Shown here: positions 7,597 to 62,975 of the stretch, piece after piece
Numbering within the stretch: the stretch's first letter is position 1
How the letters are laid out: every line of letters starts with the position of its first letter
Assembly: GCA_965261965.1 (NCBI GenBank)
Contig: OZ253489.1
Location: forward strand, 130,969-194,968
Length of the DNA: 64,000 nt
DNA from: Dehalococcoidia bacterium
GTDB lineage: Bacteria; Chloroflexota; Dehalococcoidia; Lucifugimonadales; JAGWBF01
Direction: 5' to 3'
Notes under the pieces: generated by a model
The model's database searches: none
What the model was told of the DNA's origin: nothing
What the model saw: the letters and a program-made list of their open reading frames with translations, nothing else
Program-made: the position numbers and the translations under genes

Positions 7597-9314
7597 CCCG
7601 AATCCACCGATGGACAGGGATGGACGGCGTGAGGACAGCGGAAGGGGGTGAGGGAGTTACAGGCGCGATGATCCGGGCTCGAATTTGGGTAGACGGGAGG
7701 TTGGCGGGCGGTCTGCAGGCGCTTTTGGGGGCACCGATGGCGGCCTACAGTGGCTGTGGAGAGCGAGATGGCGGGATAGGACACGGCAAGAGGCGCTCGC
7801 GGACTGGGCTGGCGCGAGTTTGCGGGGACGTTGGGTTGGCTGGCGAGTCAGTGGCGGACGGGCGCCGTCAGGCAGGGAGTGGCAGGGCGCGCAATCGGGC
7901 CAGGGCACGATCGAACTGGGCTTCCCAAGGCCAGCGCTGTGGCAGATGCAGTGTGAGGCGGCGTGCCGAGCGGGTGATCCGTCCGGCCAGGGAGAAGAAC
8001 CGTCGTCTGAGGGTCTTGGTGGTCACGATCTGCTCGCCCAGACCGATGCGCGCTGTCCAGCGGGCGAGGTTGTGGGCCATCACCTGTACCGCCAGCCAGG
8101 CGGCGTTGGCGGCGAAGCGGCCCGAGGGGAGATGGTTCAACCCCACACCGTGCTTGAGGTCTCGGATGGCATTCTCGATCTCGGCGTGGCGGCGATGGTC
8201 GGCCTCCAGTTCGAGCATCTCCCCGTCCCGGTCGGTGATGAAGCCGTGATAGCTGTAGGAGGCGAAGAGGGCCAGCTGGGAACCGGGCGTGGGCTTCACA
8301 CGCCGGACGATGAGCCGCACCGGTGCGGCGTCAGGTTCACTCTGGAACGGAGTGCAGGTGGTCTCGGCCACATCGGCGGCGCCGTCCATCCAGTAGGGAA
8401 TGGGAGTCCAGGCATCCTCTGGTATCGCCTCGATGAGATTGCGCAGGCTCTTGTGCTGGCGGATGGTGATGGAGAAGCGGACATCCATCTTGCGGCAGAC
8501 GGATACCACGCCATGAGTGTAGAACCCGCTGTCGGCCCGTAGCGTGAGTCGTCCGTTGGCCCCGGCGTAGCGCACCCGTCCCACCGTCTCCCGCAGGAAG
8601 TGGGCGGCGCCGCGGGCGGTGTTGGCCCGGCCCTCGCGCAGCCGGGACATCAGCACGTCTCCGGTGCCGGCGGCGATGGCCAGCAGCGGGTGGTAGCCCC
8701 GCTTGCCGGTATAGCCGTGGTGGCGGGCGCCCTCCTTGGCCAGTCCGTAGGTCTCGCAGATGGTGGAATCGAGGTCGATGGTGAACGGCGCGTCGCCGGG
8801 TCCGGCACCGGCCTTCCAGACCCGGGCCAGCAACTCGCGGCTCACCCGGTCCAGTTGGCGGACATGGCCCCACCTGAAGCTGCGCAGGAAGGTCCCCAGG
8901 GTGGAGGGCGCCTTAGCCGTGAAACCGAGCACGCGGGCGGTCCCGCCGGCGCGCAGCACATCGGCGTCGTCGATGCAATCTCCGCCGGCTAGGGCGGAGG
9001 CCACCAGGGTCATCATCTTGTCGCCGGTGTTCGCCCGGCCCGGTGCGCCGCCGAGGTCGAGGTCCTTCCGGAGGAGTTGGGGCAGGCCAAGGCGCAGGGC
9101 GAGGGTGGCGGGAAGGATCAGCCCGGCATTGGCCACCAGGCGGTGATCGTCGAAGGCGATTTGGATGCGGTCGGGGTGGTTACGTGGTAGCATCTATCGG
9201 GTGCTCCTTTTCTGGGACCGGTTTTCTGTTACAAAACCATTATCCCAGATTCAGAGGCGCACCCTTTTGTTTCTTCAGCAGGCCTCCTACACGCCGTCCT
9301 TCGGTGGATTAGGG
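7597..9314 (-). mobile_element. IS1380-family insertion sequence, intact copy
   Basis: Terminal inverted repeats: CCCGAATCCACCGATGG at 7597 and the reverse complement of CCTTCGGTGGATTAGGG ending at 9314. TTAAG is present on both flanks (7592-7596, 9315-9319). A single transposase ORF lies inside. Confidence 0.85.
7868..9193 (-). CDS. IS1380-family DDE transposase
   Basis: 441 aa. The N-terminus MLPRNHPDRIQIAFDDHRLVANAGLILPATLALRLGL is typical of IS1380 transposases (recognised from memory). The region looks visibly GC-richer than its surroundings. Confidence 0.9.
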   Translation of the reverse strand: MLPRNHPDRIQIAFDDHRLVANAGLILPATLALRLGLPQLLRKDLDLGGAPGRANTGDKMMTLVASALAGGDCIDDADVLRAGGTARVLGFTAKAPSTLGTFLRSFRWGHVRQLDRVSRELLARVWKAGAGPGDAPFTIDLDSTICETYGLAKEGARHHGYTGKRGYHPLLAIAAGTGDVLMSRLREGRANTARGAAHFLRETVGRVRYAGANGRLTLRADSGFYTHGVVSVCRKMDVRFSITIRQHKSLRNLIEAIPEDAWTPIPYWMDGAADVAETTCTPFQSEPDAAPVRLIVRRVKPTPGSQLALFASYSYHGFITDRDGEMLELEADHRRHAEIENAIRDLKHGVGLNHLPSGRFAANAAWLAVQVMAHNLARWTARIGLGEQIVTTKTLRRRFFSLAGRITRSARRLTLHLPQRWPWEAQFDRALARLRALPLPA

Positions 9315-18370: not shown

Positions 18371-19324
18371 ATGTCTGAACGCAGGATCAACTTCGGAGTT
18401 TCGGCTCCTGACAATTACGGCGCCATCGCTGCTTATGCTGAAGAAGCTGAGTCCCTCGGGTTTGACCGTCTGAGCTTGGGAGAGCACATCATGGATGAGA
18501 ACCCTCCACGCCCCACCGTGATGAGCATACCAGCCTTGGCTGCTGCCGGAGGAGCCACCCGGTCCCTGCGTCTTCTTACGGGCATAGTCCTGATCCCCCT
18601 CTACCACCCGGTCATGTTGGCCAAGCTTGCCACGACGTTGGATGTGGTGAGCGGTGGACGGTTGGACTTCGGCATCGGCGTGGGAGGCCAACGCGATACC
18701 CGGGGCGAGTTCGAAGCTATGGGAGTGCCCGTCGAAGAGCGGGGCCGCAGGGCCAACGAAGCAATCCGCTTGATAAAACACCTCTGGACCGGAGAATCGG
18801 TTACGTTCGAAGGCCGCTTCTACAGTTGCCGGGATGTAACACTGCTGCCCACTCCTATCCAAACGCCCCATCCGCCAATATGGGTTGCGGGTCGGGAAGA
18901 TGCAGCGATGCGCAGGGCTGCAAGGTATGGGGATGGATGGTACCCATACCTGTTCACCAAGCGAAGGCTCGAAGCCAGCATACAAAAAGTGCGGACCGAA
19001 GCTTCAGCAGCAGGAAGGGATTTGGAGGGGTTTCGGTGGGGTTTGCTTCAACCCACCTGCATAGCCGACACCCGAGATGAAGCGCTCAAGATAGCTGCGG
19101 CCAACGTTGGGCAAAGGTATGTTACAGCCGAACGAAGCGCCGAAGATATAGCTCAGGCGCTGTGCATTGCAGGCACAGCCGCGGATTGTATCCGGAAGAT
19201 CGAAGAACGAGTGGAGATGGGAATAACCGATATTACATTACAATGGATTGCGCCGGACCTAGGATCTGTGCGGGACCAGATGCGTGCGGCGGCAGCAAGC
19301 ATCTTACCATACTTCAACACATGA
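18371..19324 (+). CDS. Luciferase-like monooxygenase (LLM) class, F420/flavin-dependent oxidoreductase
   Basis: 317 aa. LLM hallmarks: LGFDRLSLGEH, GGRLDFGIGVG, PPIWVAG. Confidence 0.85.
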   Translation: MSERRINFGVSAPDNYGAIAAYAEEAESLGFDRLSLGEHIMDENPPRPTVMSIPALAAAGGATRSLRLLTGIVLIPLYHPVMLAKLATTLDVVSGGRLDFGIGVGGQRDTRGEFEAMGVPVEERGRRANEAIRLIKHLWTGESVTFEGRFYSCRDVTLLPTPIQTPHPPIWVAGREDAAMRRAARYGDGWYPYLFTKRRLEASIQKVRTEASAAGRDLEGFRWGLLQPTCIADTRDEALKIAAANVGQRYVTAERSAEDIAQALCIAGTAADCIRKIEERVEMGITDITLQWIAPDLGSVRDQMRAAAASILPYFNT

Positions 19325-20766: not shown

Positions 20767-20809
20767 GTTGTTACTCCGGTGGTTGGTGTTAATCTCCGCG
20801 CAGACGATA

Positions 20810-20849
20810 TCCTGCAGGAGCAGATGATATCCTGCAGGAATGGTGGTGA
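20810..20849. promoter_or_regulatory. Two tandem 20-bp palindrome-containing boxes upstream of the crotonase gene (candidate operator)
   Basis: GCAGAYGATATCCTGCAGGA occurs twice (20810-20829, 20830-20849). Each box contains the perfect 10-bp palindrome TCCTGCAGGA. They lie 44-83 nt upstream of the GTG at 20766. Confidence 0.3.
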
Positions 20850-20896
20850 GATTATTATTTACAAATCCATTCTAATTGCCGAACAGTATTAGGTCA

Positions 20897-21090
20897 ACGA
20901 AGCTACCGGGGCCACTGCGTAAACGAAGCTACCGGGGCCACTGCGTAAACGAAGCTACCGGGGCCACTATGTAAATGAAGCTTAGCGGGGTCGCTGCGTA
21001 AATGAAGCTTAGTGGGGTCACTGTGTAAACGAAGCTTAGCGGGGTCACTGCGTAAATGAAGCTTAGTGGGGTCACTGTGTAAATGTTCAG
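20897..21090. repeat. 26-bp tandem repeat, about 7 copies
   Basis: AGCTACCGGGGCCACTGCGTAAACGA-type units start at 20901, 20927 and 20953. Three units of one variant are followed by four of a second variant (AGCTTAGYGGGGTCRCTGYGTAAAYGA). There are no unique spacers. Confidence 0.85.
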
Positions 21091-21129
21091 ACTTCAAGGG
21101 GTCAACCTTGAGGGCCTCTTCGAATTATC

Positions 21130-21945
21130 ATCCCGAACGCCGGCTTATCACGCCGAGCCGCCCACTGTAATTCCGAACCCCCTACTGTCATTCCGAACCG
21201 CAGTGAGGAATCTAAAATGCCCCGACCAAAGCCTCGTCCAATACTACGATAAGCCATAGGGTGAGCAGGCATCTTAGATTCTTCGTCGTGCGCTCCTCAG
21301 AATGACAGTGAAGGGGCGCACTCCTCAGAACGACAGTGAAGGGGCGCACTCCTCAGAATGACAGTGAGGAGGGTGCTCCTCAGAATGACAGTGGGGGGCG
21401 CGCTCCTCAGAATGACAGTGAGGAGGGTGCTCCTCAGAATGACAGTGGGGGGCGCACTCCTCAGAATGACAGTGAAGGGGCGCGCTCCTCAGAATGACAG
21501 TGAGGAGGGTGCTCCTCAGAATGACAGTGAAGGAGGGTGCTCCTCAGAATGACGATAAGGGGGCGCTACTCAGAATGAGAATAAGGGGAGGCGCCAGCTG
21601 TAATTCCGAACCCTCCCCCTGTCATTCCGAACCGCAGTGAGGAATCTAAGATGCCCCGACCGAAGCCTAGTCCATTTCTACGACGAACCATAGGGTGAGC
21701 CAGCATCTTAGATTCTTCGTCGTGCGCTCCTCAGAATGACAGTGAGGGGGGCGCGCTCCTCAGAATGACAATAAGGGGAGGCGCCAGCTGTGATTCCGAA
21801 CCCTCTCCCTGTCATTCCGAACCGCAGTGAGGAATCTAATATGCCCCGACCAAAGCCTCGTCCAATACTACGATGAGCCGTCGGGTGAGCAGGCATCTTA
21901 GATTCTTCGTCGTGCGCTCCTCAGAATGACATGGAGGGGAGGGCG
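21130..21945 (+). repeat. Family A array 3
   Basis: Three 120-bp copies (21187-21306, 21621-21740, 21811-21930) and about ten ~31-bp CTCCTCAGAATGACAGTGARGRGGGYGC sub-repeats (21296-21600). Confidence 0.85.
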
Positions 21946-22101
21946 CTCCTCAGAAGGTGGGGTGCGGGGAAACGCGGCGGCCTCAGCTGGTAGCGCCCGG
22001 CCTTGGCTGGGTGGCGCTGCGGGCGCAGATGGGTGGCGGTCGGGCGCAGCGGGGAGGCGCTGCGGGCGCGAGTGGGTGGCGGTGGGGAGGCTGGCTTACC
22101 T

Positions 22102-22695
22102 TTAGTAGGTTGTGGGGTTGGTTTCTGCTGTCAAAGCGTTCTGTATCTGTTCTTCCAGCTTACCCGCAGTTACGAAGCCGCCGTATTTTCGGACTATGTT
22201 GTGGCTGCGGTCCAAGAAGAATGTGGTCGGAAAGCTTATTACACCATACTCCTCGAAGATAGAACCGTTGGGGTCAGCTCCTATGGCGTAGGTGATACCC
22301 AGTTCATTGATAAATTTCTGACCATCTTCTTTGGAATCCAGACCCACCAGTTGGATGCCTATAAACTCCAAGCCGTCGGCGCGATGCCTACGGAAAGAAT
22401 CTTCCATCTCGGGCATCTCTGCCCGACAGGGGGCACAAGAAGGAAACCAGAAGTTCACAACCAGCGCTTTTCCCGAAAACCGGTCCAAGCTGATCAGTTC
22501 CCCCGCTTCATAGTTTTCGTTGCCGAACGCACCGAACTGGAAGGGGGGCGCCGGATCATCATCTGCAGTCTTGGCCGAATCACCCCCGCCGCCGCAGGCG
22601 CCAGCTATCAAAAAACTGGCTATCATAACCGCAAACCATGTTGGAAACCGTAGCTGTTTCATCGCTTCAAAGGTAAATGTCGCTGCTGTTCTCAA
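22102..22695 (-). CDS. TlpA/ResA-like thiol-disulfide oxidoreductase, probable lipoprotein
   Basis: The thioredoxin-fold motif is WFPSCAPC. Lipobox-like FLIAGAC. The start is either the TTG at 22695 (overlapping the upstream stop) or the ATG at 22662. Confidence 0.8.
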   Translation of the reverse strand: MRTAATFTFEAMKQLRFPTWFAVMIASFLIAGACGGGGDSAKTADDDPAPPFQFGAFGNENYEAGELISLDRFSGKALVVNFWFPSCAPCRAEMPEMEDSFRRHRADGLEFIGIQLVGLDSKEDGQKFINELGITYAIGADPNGSIFEEYGVISFPTTFFLDRSHNIVRKYGGFVTAGKLEEQIQNALTAETNPTTY

Positions 22696-23282
22696 TTTCC
22701 GGCGGGTTGGTGGGGAAGGGGATTTGTCAGCACCTTCACCACCTCATCATAAGCAGCCAGGGCATGTTGCTCCACCAAGGCTGGGGCGATGCCTCCCAAG
22801 GGATGAGGTATGGTCACCGCCTGAAAGCCCGCCCGGCCGAAGCTGCGGGCCTGCACGTTGGCAGAATTGACAAAGGGTTCGGTACAGATCACCACAGTAG
22901 GGATTCCCCGGTTTTCCAAGGTCATAGTGTCGTGCACACTGCACGCGGTACAAGACCCTCAATCGGCGATAGCTGTAATAACATAATCGCACCGTTCTGC
23001 CAAGGCACCCAATACATCATCGCTGGCTGGGCGGGAGTAGATGAACTTGTCCAAAACCACCGAATCTTCCAACTCGAAGTTCTTGTCCAGCATGTCTTTG
23101 ATTGTCACAAGCAGCAGGTTTGCATTGGCTTTCCTGTTGCCCAGAAACCCTCCCACCTTGCCGTGGAGGCTCGGTAGCGCCGGCGCAGCCCGCCACCGAT
23201 CGTTGGCATCCGGGTCCACAGGGGCTAGGATATCCATTTGTCGGAGTTGCTCTCGAATGGCGCTGTTGGGCATTGTTCCCAT
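22692..23282 (-). CDS. UGSC-motif selenoprotein candidate (in-frame UGA at 22959-22961 read as Sec)
   Basis: ORFs 22959-23360 and 22692-22937 are in the same frame, separated by a TGA plus 7 sense codons. Read-through gives ...ITAIAD-U-GSCTACSVHDTMTLENRG... A hairpin CGTGCA-GTG-TGCACG (22931-22945) lies 13 nt after the UGA. The preferred start is the ATG at 23282 with AGGAGGA upstream. Confidence 0.65.
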
Positions 23283-23317
23283 ATCTTCCTCCTCAGGTTT
23301 AAGGCCCCTTGGTCCTG

Positions 23318-24358
23318 CTAGGGCAACTCTATCTTCCGGGTAGCTTTCCTGGAACCCCAACCCGGCAGATACACCGAATGAGGCCCCCCGCTGCCGCCTG
23401 CGACGATGATGTTGATATCTTCAGGACGCCGGACCACGGGCACCATAGCTTCATCGTCGTTGGGATCGACGAACTTCGGCCACAGCATCTCGCGGCGGGC
23501 ATCCCCTTGGGGCGGCCCACCCCGTTTGAGCAGCTTGACCGGTTTGCGGGCATGTTCGAAAAGGTACTGCTTCAGATCGGATTTCCGCCAGCCATTTTGA
23601 GCAAAGATGCGCGCATGTTCCGGCCCCAATGCTAGAAACGTATCTCCCATCACATACATCTGGACATTGCCCAAGGTGCACATGGTGTCTGCAATGCACA
23701 TCAGCAGGTCCCTTGGAGCCCCTGCATGATACATGATGTTGTGGGGAGCTTCTCCGGGGAACACAGTAACCGTGCTGTCGGATTGCTGGTAGCCAAGCTC
23801 GACGTGCAGGGGTTCCCAAGGATTGGCTGCTTCGTATTCGGCGATGCAGTAGGTGAAAGCCCCGGGATGGCCGAAGGTGGCTTTGTTGGTGGTCCCCGGA
23901 ATCGCCCCGCCCAAGTTCACCAGAGCAAGCTTCACCCCTCGGCCGATGGTTGCGTTGGCCCTCCAACCTTGACCAAAGCAGTTGTATCCGCCGTTGATAT
24001 CCAGTTGTTGGATGATGGGCCCGTTGATGATCATCAAGGGTGAATGTATGCCGGTCGAGCATTGGACGCCCCGTAAGTTGAAACGGTCGTCCATCAGCGC
24101 CTGGATGGATGCGATGATCACCGGCATGTACTCGGGCAAGCAGCCAGCCATAACTGCGTTGACGGCCAACCGTTCCACCGTGGCTTTGCCACCCAATGGC
24201 GGTATCTCCGCAATAAGCTCGTCAGCATCCCGCCCTGTAGCTGTGATATGCTGGCGGACCCGGTCTTTGGTGGGCGGTGCCACCGGCAGACCGTCGGTCC
24301 AGCCGGTGCTGTACATAAGTTCCACCATGTCCGTCATATGGGCCGAAGGCGCTTGCAT
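23318..24358 (-). CDS. Conserved hypothetical protein (346 aa), function unknown
   Basis: Long ORF co-directional with ggt and the selenoprotein candidate. No motif recognised. Confidence 0.7.
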   Translation of the reverse strand: MQAPSAHMTDMVELMYSTGWTDGLPVAPPTKDRVRQHITATGRDADELIAEIPPLGGKATVERLAVNAVMAGCLPEYMPVIIASIQALMDDRFNLRGVQCSTGIHSPLMIINGPIIQQLDINGGYNCFGQGWRANATIGRGVKLALVNLGGAIPGTTNKATFGHPGAFTYCIAEYEAANPWEPLHVELGYQQSDSTVTVFPGEAPHNIMYHAGAPRDLLMCIADTMCTLGNVQMYVMGDTFLALGPEHARIFAQNGWRKSDLKQYLFEHARKPVKLLKRGGPPQGDARREMLWPKFVDPNDDEAMVPVVRRPEDINIIVAGGSGGPHSVYLPGWGSRKATRKIELP

Positions 24359-24455: not shown

Positions 24456-26192
24456 CTACCAGCCGATGGCATAGCTGTCCCTGTGCGGGCCGGCGCCGGC
24501 GATCAAGGTCCCATGTTCTTGGTCCACCACGATAGCGCTGGGGCTTCCGGCCGTGGACATCCAATCATCCCGCACCGCTATGTTGTGCCCCATCTCTTGC
24601 AGCTTGTGCGCCACGTCGCTGTCCAGCCGTCCTTCTACGTTCAGTTCCCCGGGCACGTAGGGGTGGGGCCAACCCGAGCCGGGGAAGCTGCTGCTGCGGA
24701 ACCTGGGTTCTTCCACTGCCTGCTGGGGGTCGAAGCCGAACTCCAATATGTTCAGAAGGGTCTGGAGTTGGGCTTGCACCTGCATATCTTCTCCTGGGCT
24801 GCCGAAGGGCATGAACAACCTGCCGTCCTTCAGGGCCATCGCTGCACAAGGGGTCATGCGAGGTCGTTTGCCCGGCCCCAAGCAGTTGGGATTTTCGGGG
24901 TCCAACCAGGTTTGACCTCCCCGGCCTGAGATAGCGACACCTACGCCGGGTACGATGGGGGTGCTGGTGAATGAGTCGCTGGGGGTGGCTGAAAAACCGT
25001 TGCCCCACCGGTCCACCACACAGGTGTACGCGGTGTCAGGATCGGAGCGCCCGGACTTGGGGATTGCCTCAACAGGGTTTATGGTTTTTAGCTTTCCTTC
25101 CAAGGACCAGGGATTGCCGGGAGGAGGCATCCGGGTCCATGCAGCCTCGGGGTCAATCCCGTCTCGGCGTTGGTCCGCATACTCTTTCATCATAAGCCCG
25201 CGGATGGGCACCTCGATGATTTTCGGGTCGCCGTAATACTGATGCCGGTCTGCGAAGGACAGCTTGATTGCTTCCACAACCGTATGCACGTACTGGGCTG
25301 TGTTGTGGCCCATTCCCTGAAGATCGAAAGCTTCCAGCAGGTTCAGCGCCTGTACCAAGGTGGGTCCTTGGCACCACGGCCCGCTGGTGTGCACTGAATA
25401 ACCCCTGTAATTGGCAACTTGGGGGACTTCCACATCCACATGGAAATCAGCTAGATCATCCATCTCCAAAAGCCCATCTTGTTCTTGGCAAAAACGGACC
25501 ATCTCTTCTGCTATCTCACCTTTGTAGAACAGGTCACGGGCTGCCCGGATGGCACATTCCCGACCATTGTAGCTGCTTGCTCGTTCGGCATCCACCATCT
25601 TTCTGAATGTGCGGCCCATATCAACCTGTCGGACGATTTCCCCGACGCGAAGGAGTCTGCCCTCGGGAAGAAAAATTGACGATGTTGTGGGATAACCTGC
25701 TATGAAGTCCCGTTGGAGATTGGTTATCCGCGCCATGCGGGGGGTCACGGGGAACCCTTTCTCGCACAGCTCAATGGAAGGACCAACCACCTGCTCAAAG
25801 GTCATTGTGCCGAAACGTTCCAGAGCTGTCAGCCAAGCATCGCACGCAGCAGGCGCCACAGCCCGGGCCATGCCCCGCGGGATGATTCCGCCATGGCGTT
25901 TGACATATGGTTCGAGCTCTGCAGCTTTACCCCAAGGGCCAACGCCGCTGATGCTGTACACCTCACGGGCGTCGGAACGGTAGACCATGATGGGAGCAAC
26001 TCCGGCAAAGTTGGTCTGCTCCGCTATGGTGATGTTGAGGGCGATACCGGAAGCAACGCCTGCATCTATGGCACTGCCCCCCATTTGGAGTATTTGGAAG
26101 CCGGCGGCAGTAGCCAGATAATGACCTGTGGAGATCATGTGATGGGAGGCCATCACAGCCGGCCTGTAGGATGATATGCCCTTGGGAGGCAT
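24456..26192 (-). CDS. ggt: Gamma-glutamyltransferase
   Basis: 578 aa. GGT family features: the region around DTAYTCVVDRWGN (autoprocessing Thr) and PGEDMQ near the C-terminus. Confidence 0.88.
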   Translation of the reverse strand: MPPKGISSYRPAVMASHHMISTGHYLATAAGFQILQMGGSAIDAGVASGIALNITIAEQTNFAGVAPIMVYRSDAREVYSISGVGPWGKAAELEPYVKRHGGIIPRGMARAVAPAACDAWLTALERFGTMTFEQVVGPSIELCEKGFPVTPRMARITNLQRDFIAGYPTTSSIFLPEGRLLRVGEIVRQVDMGRTFRKMVDAERASSYNGRECAIRAARDLFYKGEIAEEMVRFCQEQDGLLEMDDLADFHVDVEVPQVANYRGYSVHTSGPWCQGPTLVQALNLLEAFDLQGMGHNTAQYVHTVVEAIKLSFADRHQYYGDPKIIEVPIRGLMMKEYADQRRDGIDPEAAWTRMPPPGNPWSLEGKLKTINPVEAIPKSGRSDPDTAYTCVVDRWGNGFSATPSDSFTSTPIVPGVGVAISGRGGQTWLDPENPNCLGPGKRPRMTPCAAMALKDGRLFMPFGSPGEDMQVQAQLQTLLNILEFGFDPQQAVEEPRFRSSSFPGSGWPHPYVPGELNVEGRLDSDVAHKLQEMGHNIAVRDDWMSTAGSPSAIVVDQEHGTLIAGAGPHRDSYAIGW

Positions 26193-29390: not shown

Positions 29391-30986
29391 GAGTTTGTCT
29401 CATAGACCGGTGGGCGGGTTGAGTAACACAGGTGTGGGAGCGATGCGCCTCAACAGAGGTTGGCCCGTCCAGTTGCACCGGCCACTTGTCGGCCCCCAGA
29501 AAGGTCGTCTACTCTCTTAGTTCCATGGCGCCTTGACCCAGTCCCAAGGCGCTTGGCCGCTGCGCCATAGCTTGAGCAAGTTATGGGTCGTCCCTGCCAG
29601 CGACCACTCACTCTGTGCAGCGCCCAACCCCCGTCTCATAAACCGTCGGAACCCCTGGCCTTCCTTGACCTGTCCGAACACCGGCTCCACCAGTACACCC
29701 CGCTTCTTGTACAGAGCTCGGCCTCGCTTTGTCAGCAGCTTGCGCTCCATCCTGTCCCTCGGGCTCAGTCCTTTTGGTATACGCCCTCGGGGACACCCCT
29801 TCTCCCATAGCAGCTTCCGCTGTTTCCAATCCTTGGTGGTGGCAATAAGAAGCTCAGGCATCTCTGGCCAGGGGCAAGCCCTGATGTTGGCCTCACTCCA
29901 GTACCCGGCATCGGCCAAGCCCGCTTTGGGCCGGTCCTCTATGCCGGCTGCTTCCAGAGTATGCGCCATGGTTTGGAGCATCGGCTCCAGTTGCTGCACA
30001 TCGTTGGCCTCTTGGGTCACTCCAACGGCTACTATGATCTGCTCCTCGCTCACCACCGCCTGGGCATTGTAGCCCTGCACGTACCCTTGCCTGGTCTTCA
30101 TGATACGACTGTCCGGGTCGGTGGTATTAGCCTTCGCCCCTTCGGTAGGAAGTGGCTCTACCACCTTGGGCTTTCGCCCTCGCTTCTTTTTGCCTGTGAC
30201 ATCTTCTTCTGCCCGCCGTCGCTCCACGTGCTCTTGGACAGCCTTGGCTCCTGCTTCAGCCTCCCGCTGCAGACGTTCCTTGGCTTCCTTCAGGCGCTTG
30301 AGCCGCTCCGTCCGTCCCCCTAGCCCTTCCGGTAGCTCATCCCCTCGCCGGTCGGGACCATAATGGGCATCCTCTTCAGCATCCGTTGCCTTGGCCTCTG
30401 CCAACATGCGCCGCACTTCTTCTTCAATGGCCTGGTGGCTCCGGTTGGTGGCCAGGGCCGCGTTGGCTGCCACCTTCGTCCCATCAAGAGCCACTACCCC
30501 CAACTTCACCAGACCCGCTTCATGGCATAACCTCAGTACCTCTACAAAGAGCTCCTCGAACGCCTCCTCGCGCTCCGCCCTAAAGCGACAGATGGTACGG
30601 AAGTCTGGCTGCCGGTTGGCCGCCACCACCCGGAATCCTACATCTTCCTCCAGAGCACGGGCTATGCGCCTGGAACTGCGTACACCCAGGCAGTAGCCGT
30701 ACAACAGGATGGCCACCATCATCCCCGGATCGTAGGCCGCTGCACCCCATCCATCACTTCGATAGACTGCATAGAACTCCCTCAGATCCATCTGGCCTAC
30801 TGCATCTACAATGAACCAAGCCAAGTGACCCTCACTCAGCCAATCCCTCATGGACGGCGGCATCAAGTAGCTCTGGTCTCGCTCGCAACTCAGAAGGTTA
30901 TAAGCCATAGTGTCCTACCTGCCTGATGTTTCTATGAGCTTACTGCTTCGCCAACCCCGCAGGAAGGGGGTTTATGGGACACGCTC
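29391..30986 (-). mobile_element. IS1182/IS5-like insertion sequence, copy 1 (1596 bp)
   Basis: Imperfect terminal inverted repeats GAGTTTGTCTCATAGACC (left end) and GAGCGTGTCCCATAAACC (reverse complement of the right end). A 4-bp direct repeat CCAT lies on both flanks (29387-29390, 30987-30990). Confidence 0.85.
29517..30908 (-). CDS. IS1182/IS5-family DDE transposase
   Basis: 463 aa. N-terminal DUF772-like region (YDPGMMVAILLYGYCLGVRSSRRI), a central charged coiled segment and a C-terminal DDE region. The family name is from memory. Confidence 0.88.
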   Translation of the reverse strand: MAYNLLSCERDQSYLMPPSMRDWLSEGHLAWFIVDAVGQMDLREFYAVYRSDGWGAAAYDPGMMVAILLYGYCLGVRSSRRIARALEEDVGFRVVAANRQPDFRTICRFRAEREEAFEELFVEVLRLCHEAGLVKLGVVALDGTKVAANAALATNRSHQAIEEEVRRMLAEAKATDAEEDAHYGPDRRGDELPEGLGGRTERLKRLKEAKERLQREAEAGAKAVQEHVERRRAEEDVTGKKKRGRKPKVVEPLPTEGAKANTTDPDSRIMKTRQGYVQGYNAQAVVSEEQIIVAVGVTQEANDVQQLEPMLQTMAHTLEAAGIEDRPKAGLADAGYWSEANIRACPWPEMPELLIATTKDWKQRKLLWEKGCPRGRIPKGLSPRDRMERKLLTKRGRALYKKRGVLVEPVFGQVKEGQGFRRFMRRGLGAAQSEWSLAGTTHNLLKLWRSGQAPWDWVKAPWN

Positions 30987-31095: not shown

Positions 31096-32406
31096 GTGAT
31101 GACCAGTATCCACAAAACAGCAGCTTTCATGATGTTGGCGTTGGCGGGGGCTATGGGTGTGGTTGCTGTAGCATCTGTGGTCGGGTGCGGGACAAACAGC
31201 CGTGGCCCAGATGCTGAGGTGGCGCCTCAAGTAGAACCTGTCGAAACCCGTGGGCTGACACCGGAGGACACCCCGCCAGCCCATGAGGCGACCCCAACCT
31301 TGGGCCGGTTTGCGCCACTGGTCGATCCAGACCCCAACTACCAAGATGCGTTGGATAATGCCCAGTTCCATGACGGTTTCTGGACCCTCACGGATTTCAG
31401 CAGGCATACGGTTCCTTTGCGAGAGATCATGTCAGGCGGCCCGCCTCCTGATGGCATCCCAGCCATCAACGATCCCCAGTTCGTTCCGTTATCTGAAGCT
31501 GACTCTTGGCTGCGAAATGAAGAGCCAGTAGTTGCTATCGAAATCGAAGGTGATGCCAGAGCTTATCCTCTGCAGATACTGATCTATCATGAGATCGTCA
31601 ACGATGTTGTGGGCGGCGTTCCGGTGATGATAACCTTCTGCCCCCTGTGCAACTCAGCTGTCATGTTCGAACGGACCGTGGATGGCGAGGTGCTCAGCTT
31701 CGGGACCACTGGGAACCTGCGAAACAGCGACCTGATAATGTATGACCGCCAGACCCAGTCTTGGTGGCAGCAGATCACCGGCGAAGGGATCGTCGGCCTG
31801 ATGGCCGGCCGCCAGCTGACCTTCCTGCCTGCCTCCATCATTTCTTGGCCGGACTTCAAGGCTGCCTACCCAGATGGAAAGGTGTTGTCGAAAGACACCG
31901 GGTACCGGCGGGACTATGGCATCAACCCCTACCGCGGATACGATAAAGCTGATAAACCTCCCATCTTCTTCGATGGTGTAGTCGACGGCCGCTTGCCTCC
32001 CAAGGAGCGAATTGTTGCGGTGACGCTGAATGATGTCGATGTAGCATTTCCGTTCACCATCTTGAAGGAAGAAAGGGTGGTGACCTACCGAGTAGGCCAA
32101 CGTGACATGGTGGTGTTCTTCCAGGATGGCGCCCAATCAGCTTTGGATTCGGAGCTATTCGGATTCTCCAAGGATGTGGGCTCTACGGGAGTGTTCGATC
32201 CGGTTCTGGAAGGTAGGGAGCTTGGTTTCAGCTATTCGGACGGGCGAATTATCGACGACCAGACGGGCAGCGCCTGGAACATCTTGGGACATGCTGTGGC
32301 TGGAGAGCTCGTCGGCAAAATGCTGACCCAGATCATTCATGGCAACCACTTCTGGTTCGCATGGGCTGCTTTCAAACCCTCAACGATAATCTATCCAGGC
32401 AGATGA
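31096..32406 (+). CDS. DUF3179 domain protein, secreted
   Basis: 436 aa. N-terminal signal/lipobox-like segment (VASVVGCG). PPDGIPAINDPQF and YHEIVND motifs typical of DUF3179. Confidence 0.8.
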   Translation: MMTSIHKTAAFMMLALAGAMGVVAVASVVGCGTNSRGPDAEVAPQVEPVETRGLTPEDTPPAHEATPTLGRFAPLVDPDPNYQDALDNAQFHDGFWTLTDFSRHTVPLREIMSGGPPPDGIPAINDPQFVPLSEADSWLRNEEPVVAIEIEGDARAYPLQILIYHEIVNDVVGGVPVMITFCPLCNSAVMFERTVDGEVLSFGTTGNLRNSDLIMYDRQTQSWWQQITGEGIVGLMAGRQLTFLPASIISWPDFKAAYPDGKVLSKDTGYRRDYGINPYRGYDKADKPPIFFDGVVDGRLPPKERIVAVTLNDVDVAFPFTILKEERVVTYRVGQRDMVVFFQDGAQSALDSELFGFSKDVGSTGVFDPVLEGRELGFSYSDGRIIDDQTGSAWNILGHAVAGELVGKMLTQIIHGNHFWFAWAAFKPSTIIYPGR

Positions 32407-32439: not shown

Positions 32440-33860
32440 CAGTCATCCTCCATAAACTAAATCTCGAGCGCCTCCCCCCTCCGTCATCCCGCCCTCCCTC
32501 CCCCCCGTCATCCCGCCCGCCCTCCCCCCCGTCATCCCGCCCGCCCTCCTCACTGTCATTCCGAACGCCCTCCTCACTGTCATTCCGAACCTCCCCCGCT
32601 GTCATTCCGAACCGCAGCGAGGAATCTAAAATCCCGGCGACCCACAATGGCCCGTCATAGTAACCAACCAGACATCAGAGCGGCATCTTAGATTCCTCGT
32701 CGTGCGCTCCTCGGAATGACATAAAGAAACTGCTCCTCAGAATGACAATAAAGGAAGGCGCCCCTCAGGACGACAACAAAAGAAGGGCGCTCTTCGGAAT
32801 GACAGTGAGGGATCTCGCCCTCCTTATCGTCATCCCCATTCCGAGGAGTGCCTCCCCCGCTGTCATTCCGAACCGCGGTGAGGAATCTAAAATCCCGGCG
32901 ACCCACAATGGCCCGTCGTAGTAACCAACCAGACATCAGAGCGGCATCTTAGATTCCTCGTCGTGCGCTCCTCGGAATGACAGTAAGGGAGGCGCCCCTC
33001 AGAATGACAGGGCGGAGGCACTCCTCGGAATGACAGTGCAGGAAGGGCGCTCCTCGGAATGACAGTGCAGGAAGGGCGCTCCTCGGAATGACAGTGAGGG
33101 AGGCGCTCCTCGGAATGACAGTGCGGGGAGCTCGCCCTCCTTATCGTCATCCCCATTCCGAGGAGTGCCTCCGCCCTGTCATTCCGAACCTCCCCCGCCG
33201 TCATTCCGAACGGACTCTCTGTCCGTCCGACCCTCCCCTCGCTGTCATTCCGAACCGCGGTGAGGAATCTAAAATCCCGGCGACCCACAATGGCCCGTCG
33301 TAGTAACCAACCAGACATCAAAGCGGCATCTTAGATTCCTCGTCGTGCGCTCCTCGGAATGACATAAAGAAGGTGCTCCGCGGAATGACAGTGAGGGAGG
33401 CGCTCCTCGGAATGACAGTGCAGGGAGGCGCTCGTCGGAATGACAGTGAGGGGAGGCGCTCCTCGGAATGACAGCGAGGGGAGGTGCTCCTCGGAATGAC
33501 AGTGAGGGGAGGCGCTCCTCGGAATGACAGTGCAGGAACGGCACTCCTCGGAATGACAGCGAGGGAGCTCGCCCTCCTTATCGTCATCCCCATTCCGAGG
33601 AGCGCCTCTCCCAATGTCATTCCGAACCTCCCCCCTGTCATTCCGAACGGGCCCCCGTCATTCCGAACCTTCCCCGCTGTCATTCCGAACCGCAGTGAGG
33701 AATCTAAAATCTCCCTCCGATGGCCTGCCCGTTACTACGACGGTCCTTCAGGTGAGCCAGCAGCTTAGATTCCTTGTCGTGCGCGCCTCAGAATGACAGT
33801 AAAGGGAAGGCGGTCCGCAGAATGACGGTGATGGGAGGCACCCCGGAGGATAAAGATAAG
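32440..33860 (+). repeat. Family A array 4
   Basis: Copies at 32601-32720, 32862-32981 and 33244-33363 (core inverted relative to array 1) and at 33679-33797 (core as in array 1). About eight ~31-bp CTCCTCGGAATGACAG sub-repeats lie at 33340-33570. Confidence 0.85.
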
Positions 33861-53082: not shown

Positions 53083-53685
53083 GTGGCTTCAACCGTTCAA
53101 GTAACTGTGTGGTACGACTACACTTGACCCTTCTGCTATGTCGGTCTGGCAAGACTCGACAAGGTGGCTCAAGCTCATCCTCTGGATGTAGAACGTCTGC
53201 CGTTTCTGCTTTCTCCCAACAAACCGCCGGAGGGTGAACCTCGGCGCCTGTTAGACGGAGAAACCGAAACCGAGCTGTCTCCTGCCGCTCAGGAGCGGGC
53301 TCGGGCAGCGGGCTTGGTTATGCGGAGGCCTGCTTGGTCTCCCAACACCATGCTTGTCCATGAAGCGACGCTGTACACCAAAGAAAAGGGGCAGGATGAC
53401 CGGTTCCACCATGTTGCAGCCAAAGCATACTGGGAGGATGGCGCCGATCTGGCAAACATGGATGTGGTCCAGAGGCTTGCCAATGAATGCGGCTTGGATT
53501 GGGCAGAATTATCAGGGCGTCTGGAATCGGGGCATTACCGTCAGCAGGTGCTGGACACATACGAACAAGCCAAAGCAATTGGTGTCGGTGGCACGCCTAC
53601 TTACAGGATTTCAGGGGAGCTTCTGCCGGGTGACGTTAGCTACGAATCTCTGGAAGAGGCTGTTCAACAAGCTGAATCCAGCTAG
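53083..53685 (+). CDS. DsbA/FrnE-like oxidoreductase, selenocysteine candidate (UGA at 53125-53127)
   Basis: The ORF track begins at GTG 53164. The same frame is open upstream except for one TGA, giving (M)ASTVQVTVWYDYT-U-PFCYVGLARLDKVAQAH. This is the DsbA-family CPxC position. GGAGG lies 6 nt before the GTG at 53083. A bulged 8-bp hairpin at 53140-53160 lies 12 nt after the UGA. Confidence 0.65.
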
Positions 53686-61379: not shown

Positions 61380-62975
61380 GAGTTTGTCTCATAGACCGGT
61401 GGGCGGGTTGAGTAACACAGGTGTGGGAGCGATGCGCCTCAACAGAGGTTGGCCCGTCCAGTTGCACCGGCCACTTGTCGGCCCCCAGAAAGGTCGTCTA
61501 CTCTCTTAGTTCCATGGCGCCTTGACCCAGTCCCAAGGCGCTTGGCCGCTGCGCCATAGCTTGAGCAAGTTATGGGTCGTCCCTGCCAGCGACCACTCAC
61601 TCTGTGCAGTGCCCAACCCCCGTCTCATAAACCGTCGGAACCCCTGGCCTTCCTTGACCTGTCCGAACACCGGCTCCACCAGTACACCCCGCTTCTTGTA
61701 CAGAGCTCGGCCTCGCTTTGTCAGCAGCTTGCGCTCCATCCTGTCCCTCGGGCTCAGTCCTTTTGGTATACGCCCTCGGGGACACCCCTTCTCCCATAGC
61801 AGCTTCCGCTGTTTCCAATCCTTGGTGGTGGCAATAAGAAGCTCAGGCATCTCTGGCCAGGGGCAAGCCCTGATGTTGGCCTCACTCCAGTACCCGGCAT
61901 CGGCCAAGCCCGCTTTGGGCCGGTCCTCTATGCCGGCTGCTTCCAGAGTATGCGCCATGGTTTGGAGCATCGGCTCCAGTTGCTGCACATCGTTGGCCTC
62001 TTGGGTCACTCCAACGGCTACTATGATCTGCTCCTCGCTCACCACCGCCTGGGCATTGTAGCCCTGCACGTACCCTTGCCTGGTCTTCATGATACGACTG
62101 TCCGGGTCGGTGGTATTAGTCTTCGCCTCTTCGGTAGGAAGTGGCTCTACCACCTTGGGCTTTCGCCCTCGCTTCTTTTTGCCTGTGACATCTTCTTCTG
62201 CCCGCCGTCGCTCCACGTGCTCTTGGACAGCCTTGGCTCCTGCTTCAGCCTCCCGCTGCAGACGTTCCTTGGCTTCCTTCAGGCGCTTGAGCCGCTCCGT
62301 CCGTCCCCCTAGCCCTTCCGGTAGCTCATCCCCTCGCCGGTCGGGACCATAATGGGCATCCTCTTCAGCATCCGTTGCCTTGGCCTCTGCCAACATGCGC
62401 CGCACTTCTTCTTCAATGGCCTGGTGGCTCCGGTTGGTGGCCAGGGCCGCGTTGGCTGCCACCTTCGTCCCATCAAGAGCCACTACCCCCAACTTCACCA
62501 GACCCGCTTCATGGCATAACCTCAGTACCTCTACAAAGAGCTCCTCGAACGCCTCCTCGCGCTCCGCCCTAAAGCGACAGATGGTACGGAAGTCTGGCTG
62601 CCGGTTGGCCGCCACCACCCGGAATCCTACATCTTCCTCCAGAGCACGGGCTATGCGCCTGGAACTGCGTACACCCAGGCAGTAGCCGTACAACAGGATG
62701 GCCACCATCATCCCCGGATCGTAGGCCGCTGCACCCCATCCATCACTTCGATAGACTGCATAGAACTCCCTCAGATCCATCTGGCCTACTGCATCTACAA
62801 TGAACCAAGCCAAGTGACCCTCACTCAGCCAATCCCTCATGGACGGCGGCATCAAGTAGCTCTGGTCTCGCTCGCAACTCAGAAGGTTATAAGCCATAGT
62901 GTCCTACCTGCCTGATGTTTCTATGAGCTTACTGCTTCGCCAACCCCGCAGGAAGGGGGTTTATGGGACACGCTC
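61380..62975 (-). mobile_element. IS1182/IS5-like insertion sequence, copy 2 (1596 bp)
   Basis: Collinear with 29391-30986 over its full length. A 4-bp direct repeat ATAG lies on both flanks (61376-61379, 62976-62979). It sits between proW and the substrate-binding gene. Confidence 0.85.
61506..62897 (-). CDS. IS1182/IS5-family DDE transposase
   Basis: 463 aa. It differs from the 29517-30908 product at three residues in the supplied translations (G/E, A/T, A/T). Confidence 0.88.
   Translation of the reverse strand: MAYNLLSCERDQSYLMPPSMRDWLSEGHLAWFIVDAVGQMDLREFYAVYRSDGWGAAAYDPGMMVAILLYGYCLGVRSSRRIARALEEDVGFRVVAANRQPDFRTICRFRAEREEAFEELFVEVLRLCHEAGLVKLGVVALDGTKVAANAALATNRSHQAIEEEVRRMLAEAKATDAEEDAHYGPDRRGDELPEGLGGRTERLKRLKEAKERLQREAEAGAKAVQEHVERRRAEEDVTGKKKRGRKPKVVEPLPTEEAKTNTTDPDSRIMKTRQGYVQGYNAQAVVSEEQIIVAVGVTQEANDVQQLEPMLQTMAHTLEAAGIEDRPKAGLADAGYWSEANIRACPWPEMPELLIATTKDWKQRKLLWEKGCPRGRIPKGLSPRDRMERKLLTKRGRALYKKRGVLVEPVFGQVKEGQGFRRFMRRGLGTAQSEWSLAGTTHNLLKLWRSGQAPWDWVKAPWN

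Follow-up and report, generated by a model that had tools for sequence, protein, structure and literature searches.

An in-frame UGA divides the gene of a predicted UGSC-family selenoprotein in a Dehalococcoidia genome

The DNA analysed here (the window) is a stretch of 64,000 nucleotides (nt) from contig OZ253489.1 of a Dehalococcoidia bacterium. Bases 23282 to 22692, read on the minus strand, very probably form one gene encoding a 196-residue selenoprotein of the UGSC family, in which UGA is read as selenocysteine (Sec, U) and which most likely serves as a redox subunit paired with a protein of 346 amino acids (aa) encoded next to it. The stretch is a single gene and belongs to the UGSC family; its UGA is conserved and is matched by cysteine in homologues, the hairpin that follows the UGA is constrained, and the gene is linked to that of the 346-aa protein, to which Cys-form relatives are in some cases fused. 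The UGSC family has been known since 2005-2008, and the gene is a new member of this already described family, its identification confirming a catalogued kind.

One reading frame across the UGA

Two minus-strand open reading frames (ORFs), at 22959-23360 and 22692-22937, lie in one frame and are separated by the TGA at 22961-22959 and a further 21 nt (seven codons). Reading through the TGA gives 107 residues, U and 88 more residues (...DYVITAIAD-U-GSCTACSVHD...). An earlier note on this DNA had read the pair in this way, as the two halves of a 196-aa protein with a U-x-x-C motif, and both the layout and the translation hold. Translation starts at the ATG at 23282-23280, and homologues share the same initial methionine; in the ORF listing, the second piece opens with a GTG that lies seven codons past the first TGA. 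The features of the gene and of its surroundings are collected in Table 1. The suspicion that standard gene callers would split the gene is borne out by an identical gene on a contig of the ENA database (locus L001), which was called as proteins of 107 aa and 77 aa, each annotated with PF24696, and by 108 relatives stored at about 107 aa.

Table 1. Coordinates and properties of the predicted selenoprotein gene, its hairpin and codons, and related features of the window
Feature	Position	Strand	Details
UGSC-family selenoprotein (predicted), complete coding sequence	22692..23282	-	ATG 23282-23280, in-frame UGA, own stop TGA 22694-22692; 196 aa
Shine-Dalgarno-like GAGGAGG	23288..23294	-	5 nt 5' of the ATG; read from the sequence
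In-frame UGA, predicted selenocysteine, residue 108	22959..22961	-	First residue of U-G-S-C-T-A-C; TGA in 82/82 loci, Cys in 41 full-length homologues
SECIS-like stem-loop inside the coding sequence	22915..22962	-	Minimum-energy fold, pairing conservation, codon entropy
Lower stem	22962-22954 / 22923-22915	-	UGA included in the stem
Upper stem CGUGCA / UGCACG	22945-22940 / 22936-22931	-	Apical loop GUG 22939-22937
Codon -1			GAT 77/78; normalised entropy 0.10
Codon +5			GCG 52/52; normalised entropy 0
Codon +6			TGC 77/78; normalised entropy 0.10
Codon +7			AGT 71/71; normalised entropy 0
Codon +8			GTG 67/67; normalised entropy 0
Codon +9			CAC 74/78; normalised entropy 0.29
346-aa partner gene	23318..24358	-	35 nt upstream of the UGSC gene, same strand; conserved companion
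Thioredoxin-like (TlpA/ResA/AhpC-TSA) protein, C-A-P-C	22102-22695	-	Directly downstream of the UGSC gene
Second split gene, candidate selenoprotein, DsbA-like, U-P-F-C	53083-53685	+	200 aa; predicted Sec codon TGA 53125-53127

Family models were searched with the read-through product, in which C stood in for U. The match to NCBIfam NF041046, "UGSC family (seleno)protein," reached 131.4 bits (curated cut-off, 125), showing that the RefSeq name given in the earlier note was the right one. Pfam PF24696, "UGSC," matched at 152.9 bits (cut-off, 25) over residues 18 to 186 and thus spans the junction. The length of 196 aa falls within the range of stand-alone homologues (171 to 215 aa), and U108-G-S-C111 occupies the position of the conserved motif.

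A search of 5.8 billion proteins retrieved 108 close relatives with 50 to 100% identity, all of about 107 aa and ending in ...T[AC][IV][AG]D. Homologues that terminate at the UGA had been named beforehand as evidence that would speak against a selenoprotein; here they are a gene-calling artefact, all 108 being cut at one codon because gene callers stop at the conserved Sec codon, beyond which the DNA continues in frame. Eighty related loci were fetched from species-representative genomes, and the analyses of synonymous codons and of base pairing were made on 76 to 78 sequences. The loci are labelled Dehalococcoidia, SAR202 or Chloroflexota, except that one is labelled Planctomycetaceae and another "uncultured bacterium." At the aligned codon, 82/82 copies have TGA and none has TAA, TAG or a sense codon; the frame then runs on through G-S-C-T-[A/S]-C and 59 to 116 (mostly 79 to 82) more codons. 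Sequencing error, another objection foreseen, is excluded because the same TGA recurs in 82 loci of many independent assemblies.

Homologues that run across the junction came from an exhaustive HMMER search for which the query was the C-terminal half of the UGSC protein. These full-length relatives measure 171 to 215 aa, and in all 41 that were fetched (27 to 39% identity) a cysteine is aligned to U, as a true Sec position had been expected to show. P21, C108, C111 and P161 are the sole invariant residues among the 41, and the third cysteine of U-G-S-C-T-A-C is variable across this wider family.

The "UGSC-containing protein" is a predicted selenoprotein family, one of the commonest found in the Global Ocean Sampling (GOS) data, where 255 Sec forms were counted versus 21 Cys forms (PMC2398784). 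A thioredoxin-like redox protein was proposed for it by Zhang and Gladyshev (PLoS Genet 2008; PMC2398784), and later reviews list it under NF041046 with a function that is still uncharacterised (PMC13188914; PMC9312934).

The UGSC gene ends in a TGA of its own, as do 7 of the 38 window ORFs that reach 200 aa or more. TGA thus otherwise acts as a regular stop codon in this genome, which excludes a reassigned genetic code. Across those 38 ORFs, a mechanical and uncurated set, the stops are TAG in 22, TAA in 9 and TGA in 7. Such dominance of TAG and scarcity of TGA are unusual in a genome of about 57% G+C, and might be linked to heavy use of UGA for Sec.

The hairpin downstream of the UGA and selenocysteine use

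In the standard bacterial mechanism, a hairpin recruits SelB carrying Sec-tRNA(Sec). The earlier note had pointed to a stem CGTGCA/TGCACG with a GTG loop at 22931-22945, 13 nt past the UGA, and had proposed it as the selenocysteine insertion sequence (SECIS) of the gene. The stem is present as described and forms the upper tier of a larger stem-loop. The apical hairpin spans 13 to 27 nt past the UGA, and its loop starts 19 nt past it. This fits the usual position of a bacterial SECIS (the bSECISearch consensus), with a short stem, a loop near 19 nt after the UGA, and G and U in the loop. Over 76 distinct sequences, 84% of the cells of the two-tier structure are paired, versus 23 to 57% when the 3' partners are slid by 1 to 3 columns. 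Compensatory double changes are found in three pairs, examples being an upper-stem G:C that becomes A:U and a lower-stem G:C that becomes C:G. Cys-form UGSC genes are represented by only four loci, each of which folds differently at the site of the hairpin.

Codon choice bears on the hairpin more directly. Normalised synonymous entropy is 0.6 to 0.9 at most other conserved codons of the gene and drops sharply at codon -1 and at codons +5 to +9 (Table 1); it is reduced at codon +10 too. Codon choice is thus nearly frozen over the hairpin, and selection must therefore act on the nucleotides of the hairpin, beyond the protein. The collapse at codon -1 and codons +5 to +10 is, as read from the aligned codons, a SECIS signature, and the proposal that the hairpin acts as a SECIS is upheld by both its conservation in relatives and this constraint. 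The junction as a whole, with TGA in 82/82 copies, conserved coding downstream and synonymous suppression over the hairpin, is far beyond chance. The stem-loop just 3' of the UGA, with its G-U-containing loop, would direct Sec decoding at 22961-22959 via SelB, and we infer that Sec is inserted into the UGSC product.

A second split gene in the window, DsbA-like, points in the same direction. It has a GTG start after GGGGAGGTGG, and its motif ...VTVWYDYT-U-PFCYVG... carries U-P-F-C in place of C-x-x-C. The product matches Pfam DSBA at 104 bits over residues 6 to 195, with the UGA spanned, and a hairpin lies about 15 nt past the UGA (z = -2.1). Its relatives in the databases are mostly truncated at the N terminus, and those of full length have C-P-[F/W]-C aligned to this motif; a scan of metagenome contigs gave no match to this candidate. 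The gene offers indirect support for Sec use by the organism, which would presumably have the capacity to decode Sec.

The partner protein, a possible enzyme and the alternatives

The 346-aa partner is encoded directly upstream of the UGSC gene, on the same strand, in 81/81 loci, with 69 to 76% identity in the 80 genome loci. Partner and UGSC protein also occur together in Cys-form lineages. The partner is fused to the C terminus of a Cys-form UGSC protein in P0220 (43% identity; E, 6e-87) and P0241 (36%; E, 2e-61), each 560 aa long. At locus L088 it stands beside a Cys-form UGSC gene in reversed order with a 4-nt gap (50% identity; E, 1e-118), and at L085 it overlaps one by 4 nt; the Cys-form UGSC proteins of the L085 and L088 lineages show 35 to 39% identity. 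The partner matched no Pfam or NCBIfam family and gave no meaningful sequence match in the PDB. Its own family is large, with at least 7,994 homologues scored, and among the matches listed there is no Pfam domain and no name other than "hypothetical protein." It features the motifs GWTDGLPVxPPT and NAVMAGC and an invariant Cys73. The structural model of the partner has a predicted local distance difference test score (pLDDT) of 82.9 and a predicted template modelling score (pTM) of 0.85. In a Foldseek search its only structural match was a weak one, to class I fumarate hydratase (alpha subunit; E, 8e-5); at a TM-score of about 0.3 and a root mean square deviation of 16 Å, no function was assigned from this match.

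Other fusions and neighbours of UGSC proteins are of different kinds. The fusion domain "Unknown_1" of the 2008 paper (PMC2398784) may correspond to the 346-aa partner. P0141 is a fusion to a pyridine-nucleotide-disulphide oxidoreductase and P0195 is a fusion to a NifU-like domain, and the gene of the Cys-form protein P0122 (locus L087) is followed by an ORF that looks thioredoxin-reductase-like by eye.

The fold was taken from an AlphaFold model of P0220, the natural Cys-form fusion. The UGSC domain of this model has block-mean pLDDT values of 90 to 98 and is composed of five beta-alpha units, with the CxxC in a turn before a helix. Its best PDB matches in Foldseek are flavodoxin-like, namely, an azoreductase (E, 2e-5) and a flavodoxin (TM-score, 0.54 relative to the target), and a sequence search of the PDB with the UGSC profile gave no meaningful match. 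The UGSC fold is thus predicted to be flavodoxin-like and not thioredoxin-like, although the match is modest.

The C-terminal part of the protein leads to a different set of enzymes. Residues 94 to 176 of the window protein align to positions 333 to 408 of the 431 positions of the GrdB model TIGR01917. This model matches at an E value of 0.01 or below in 15 of 42 UGSC family members, and all other secondary matches are to GrdF, GrdH or PrdB. A UxxCxxC motif has been reported for GrdB (PMC13188914), and the U-GS-C-TA-C of the UGSC protein has this form. The C-terminal two-fifths of UGSC appear to be distantly related to the Sec region of GrdB/PrdB, a signal that is weak but consistent. An iron-sulfur-binding role for the UxxCxxC motif was rejected as the principal interpretation, its third cysteine not being conserved across the UGSC family.

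Most likely, UGSC and the upstream 346-aa protein form a physical complex that works as a two-protein enzyme, in which UGSC would be the redox-active subunit and the 346-aa protein the catalytic or substrate-binding one. The U-x-x-C, which the model places in a turn between a beta-strand and the N terminus of a helix, may cycle between selenol/thiol and selenenylsulfide. The partner would hold a substrate for Sec to attack or reduce, leaving an Se-S bond that a thioredoxin-reductase-like or thioredoxin system would then reduce again. By analogy, UGSC would resemble the B subunits of glycine and D-proline reductase, which carry Sec, while standing outside their families. The broader proposal, that UGSC and the 346-aa protein constitute a widespread and undescribed two-subunit selenoenzyme, a new reductase family that is sometimes contained in one chain, is a possibility put forward tentatively. 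In such an enzyme, a GrdB/PrdB-like Sec/Cys domain on a predicted flavodoxin-like scaffold would serve a catalytic subunit that has no close relative in the PDB.

Several results weigh against this picture. No tRNA gene was detected by ARAGORN in the 64-kb window, which hence has no tRNA-Sec, and selA, selB and selD were not found there by tblastn with the Escherichia coli SelA, SelB and SelD proteins (best E, 0.13); the same queries gave no match in the related loci to which they were applied. On its own the hairpin is weak evidence and is not significant in this one sequence, as its 71-nt fold has a z of -1.33 and 23 of 200 shuffled sequences fold as well. Perfect 6-bp hairpins with loops of 3 to 8 nt number 129 in the window, about 1 per 500 nt, a count from which the chance that one starts 10 to 25 nt past any codon is estimated here at roughly 3%. 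Covariation is modest, with double changes in 3 of the 20 pairs and in six cells, because the hairpin encodes the highly conserved peptide A-C-S-V-H-D. No SECIS or other relevant Rfam family matched, either in the whole window at gathering thresholds or in 22860-23000 under permissive settings. UGSC adjoins different genes in other genomes, such as the thioredoxin-reductase-like ORF of L087. The chain that was modelled is P0220 and not the window selenoprotein itself, and the Foldseek matches of its UGSC domain are weak, with TM-scores of 0.4 to 0.5 relative to the target. The score of the window protein against TIGR01917 is 27.6 bits versus a cut-off of 602.2, which places it well outside full-length GrdB.

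An alternative that accepts the selenoprotein, and that is unlikely but deserves consideration, is that UGSC works as a free-standing, thioredoxin-like disulfide reductase, with the 346-aa gene linked to it only through regional shared ancestry. A thioredoxin-like protein was the original proposal (PMC2398784), some UGSC genes have the thioredoxin-reductase-like or NifU-like neighbours and fusions described above, and the 80 genome loci come from one class, in which synteny could be inherited. However, other neighbours are not conserved in the same loci in which the partner is present in 81/81. The pair recurs, moreover, in the divergent Cys-form lineages, in reversed order or with overlapping genes, and is fused in single proteins, and the modelled fold is flavodoxin-like rather than that of thioredoxin.

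It is very improbable that the UGA is instead read through as Cys, Trp or Gly by a near-cognate or suppressor tRNA, or that it is a sequencing or assembly error for TGC or TGT. The failure to find Sec-insertion genes in the 64-kb window would agree with such decoding, as would cysteine being the residue of the non-UGA homologues, but the TGA shared by loci of many independent assemblies rules out error. Sec insertion requires just such a synonymously constrained hairpin at the SECIS position, and to our knowledge no other known read-through mechanism accounts for the constraint. A second UGA/Cys pair is present in the same window, in the DsbA-like redox motif, and UGSC has long been recognised as a selenoprotein family in which Sec forms far outnumber Cys forms (255 versus 21 in GOS; PMC2398784). 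That the TGA is a true stop, giving two small genes (107 aa and about 81 aa) or a nonsense-mutated pseudogene, is scarcely credible: the public calls of 107 aa and 77 aa, the 108 truncated database entries and the normal use of TGA as a stop elsewhere in the window are what it would predict, but a nonsense mutation would not recur at one codon, always as TGA, in 82/82 diverged loci, the frame downstream remains open and its protein sequence is conserved, a single Pfam domain covers both halves, the sole start for the second ORF is a GTG within the hairpin that has no ribosome-binding site, and distant homologues are continuous with Cys at the position of the UGA.

With the UGSC product regarded as a selenoprotein paired with the 346-aa protein, the consequences concern both annotation and function. 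The gene and its close relatives are stored as fragments of 107 aa and about 77 aa, with the redox centre at the exact break, and the DsbA-like gene at 53 kb is split likewise. Counts of selenoproteins and inferences of redox capacity that rely on standard gene calls in Dehalococcoidia or SAR202-type genomes will miss such genes. No paper joining SAR202 and selenoproteins was found in the literature searched. UGSC is among the most abundant predicted selenoprotein families of aquatic metagenomes and is functionally still uncharacterised; leads to its function are its strict pairing, in some cases fusion, with a family of "hypothetical" proteins that is very large, a fusion that joins it to a thioredoxin-reductase-like flavoprotein, and the distant link to GrdB/PrdB. 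What goes beyond the known family is the 346-aa partner that is always adjacent, the flavodoxin-like predicted fold and the GrdB/PrdB link, and the module of UGSC and partner may point to what a major orphan selenoprotein family does. If true, the two-subunit selenoenzyme would be a new reductase family, and the large number of Sec-form loci among metagenome assemblies of Dehalococcoidia, some labelled SAR202, suggests that it may be common there.

Other features of the window and comparison with known systems

The thioredoxin-like gene directly downstream of the UGSC gene encodes an N terminus that resembles a lipoprotein signal by eye (...LIAGAC). This gene and the gamma-glutamyltranspeptidase gene upstream were considered as members of the UGSC system and rejected, as they have a match only on the identical contig L001 among the 81 loci; the thioredoxin-like gene is probably unrelated to UGSC. 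The gamma-glutamyltranspeptidase is a single ORF of 578 aa at 24456-26192 and was called as 190 aa plus 328 aa on the near-identical ENA contig L001 (89-1827), where an assembly error or frameshift is the probable cause. Among loci L002 to L081, 43 have an NHL-repeat beta-propeller ORF near the UGSC gene and 63 have one or two luciferase-like monooxygenase ORFs, mostly downstream and on the strand of the UGSC gene; the luciferase-like gene of the window (18371-19324) lies on the other strand. Both families may just be rich in paralogues in such genomes, and the meaning of their linkage to UGSC is uncertain.

A dispersed repeat that translates as F[FL]VVRSSE followed by TGA (SSE* at 33469) occurs at six or more sites on both strands (about 2609, 3213, 9949, 10145, 21927 and 33469), one of them in the gene-poor region 20767-22101 just downstream of the thioredoxin-like gene, and is probably a small repetitive element. 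A transposase ORF of 463 aa is present in two copies, 29517-30908 and 61506-62897, both on the minus strand, with identical out-of-frame peptide strings; the first carries DUF772 and DDE_Tnp_1, and the two are probably a duplicated insertion sequence element. The segments at about 8.2 to 9.2 kb and 50.1 to 51.1 kb contain near-identical translated strings in the same order (e.g., SPPAPETC-stop at 8650 and 50542) and are probably a duplicated gene family. A DUF3179 protein is encoded at 31096-32406 on the plus strand by an ORF of 436 aa that ends in TGA, with the Pfam domain (352 bits) complete before this stop. Recent reviews list the DUF3179 family with Sec forms (UxxC/T) (PMC13188914).

Compared with thioredoxin-fold oxidoreductases, the UGSC domain is predicted to lack the beta-alpha-beta-alpha-beta-beta-alpha order; the P0220 model presents five beta-alpha units. 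The stem-loop is like bacterial SECIS elements such as that of E. coli fdhF in being a hairpin within the coding sequence, directly 3' of the UGA, with a 6-bp upper stem and a small apical loop in which G and U are invariant. Unlike them, it has a loop of just 3 nt, extended to 5 nt in a few relatives, its lower stem takes the UGA into the pairing, and it is matched by no curated Rfam model.

With GrdB, GrdF, GrdH and PrdB (TIGR01917, TIGR01918 and TIGR04483), UGSC shares the C-terminal similarity, the UxxCxxC form and a gene placed beside that of a second subunit. In contrast to GrdB/PrdB, its scores are far below the cut-offs and the large N-terminal part of GrdB is missing; no GrdA, GrdE or PrdA homologues lie near the UGSC gene, and the partner has no detectable similarity to the pyruvoyl proenzymes. 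The hosts differ as well, GrdB/PrdB being found in amino-acid-fermenting clostridia and UGSC in lineages of the class Dehalococcoidia, with some assemblies labelled SAR202.

The window protein agrees with the UGSC family (NF041046, PF24696) in its full-domain match, in the U-G-S-C site, in the cysteine of the non-Sec homologues and in its length, which falls in the family range of about 170 to 215 aa, and the gene does so in the in-frame UGA followed by a hairpin. It is mostly in its Sec form that the family turns up in aquatic metagenomes. Within it, the Dehalococcoidia/SAR202-type clade is distinguished by a motif extended to an invariant U-G-S-C-T-[A/S]-C and by public protein entries that are 107-aa fragments.

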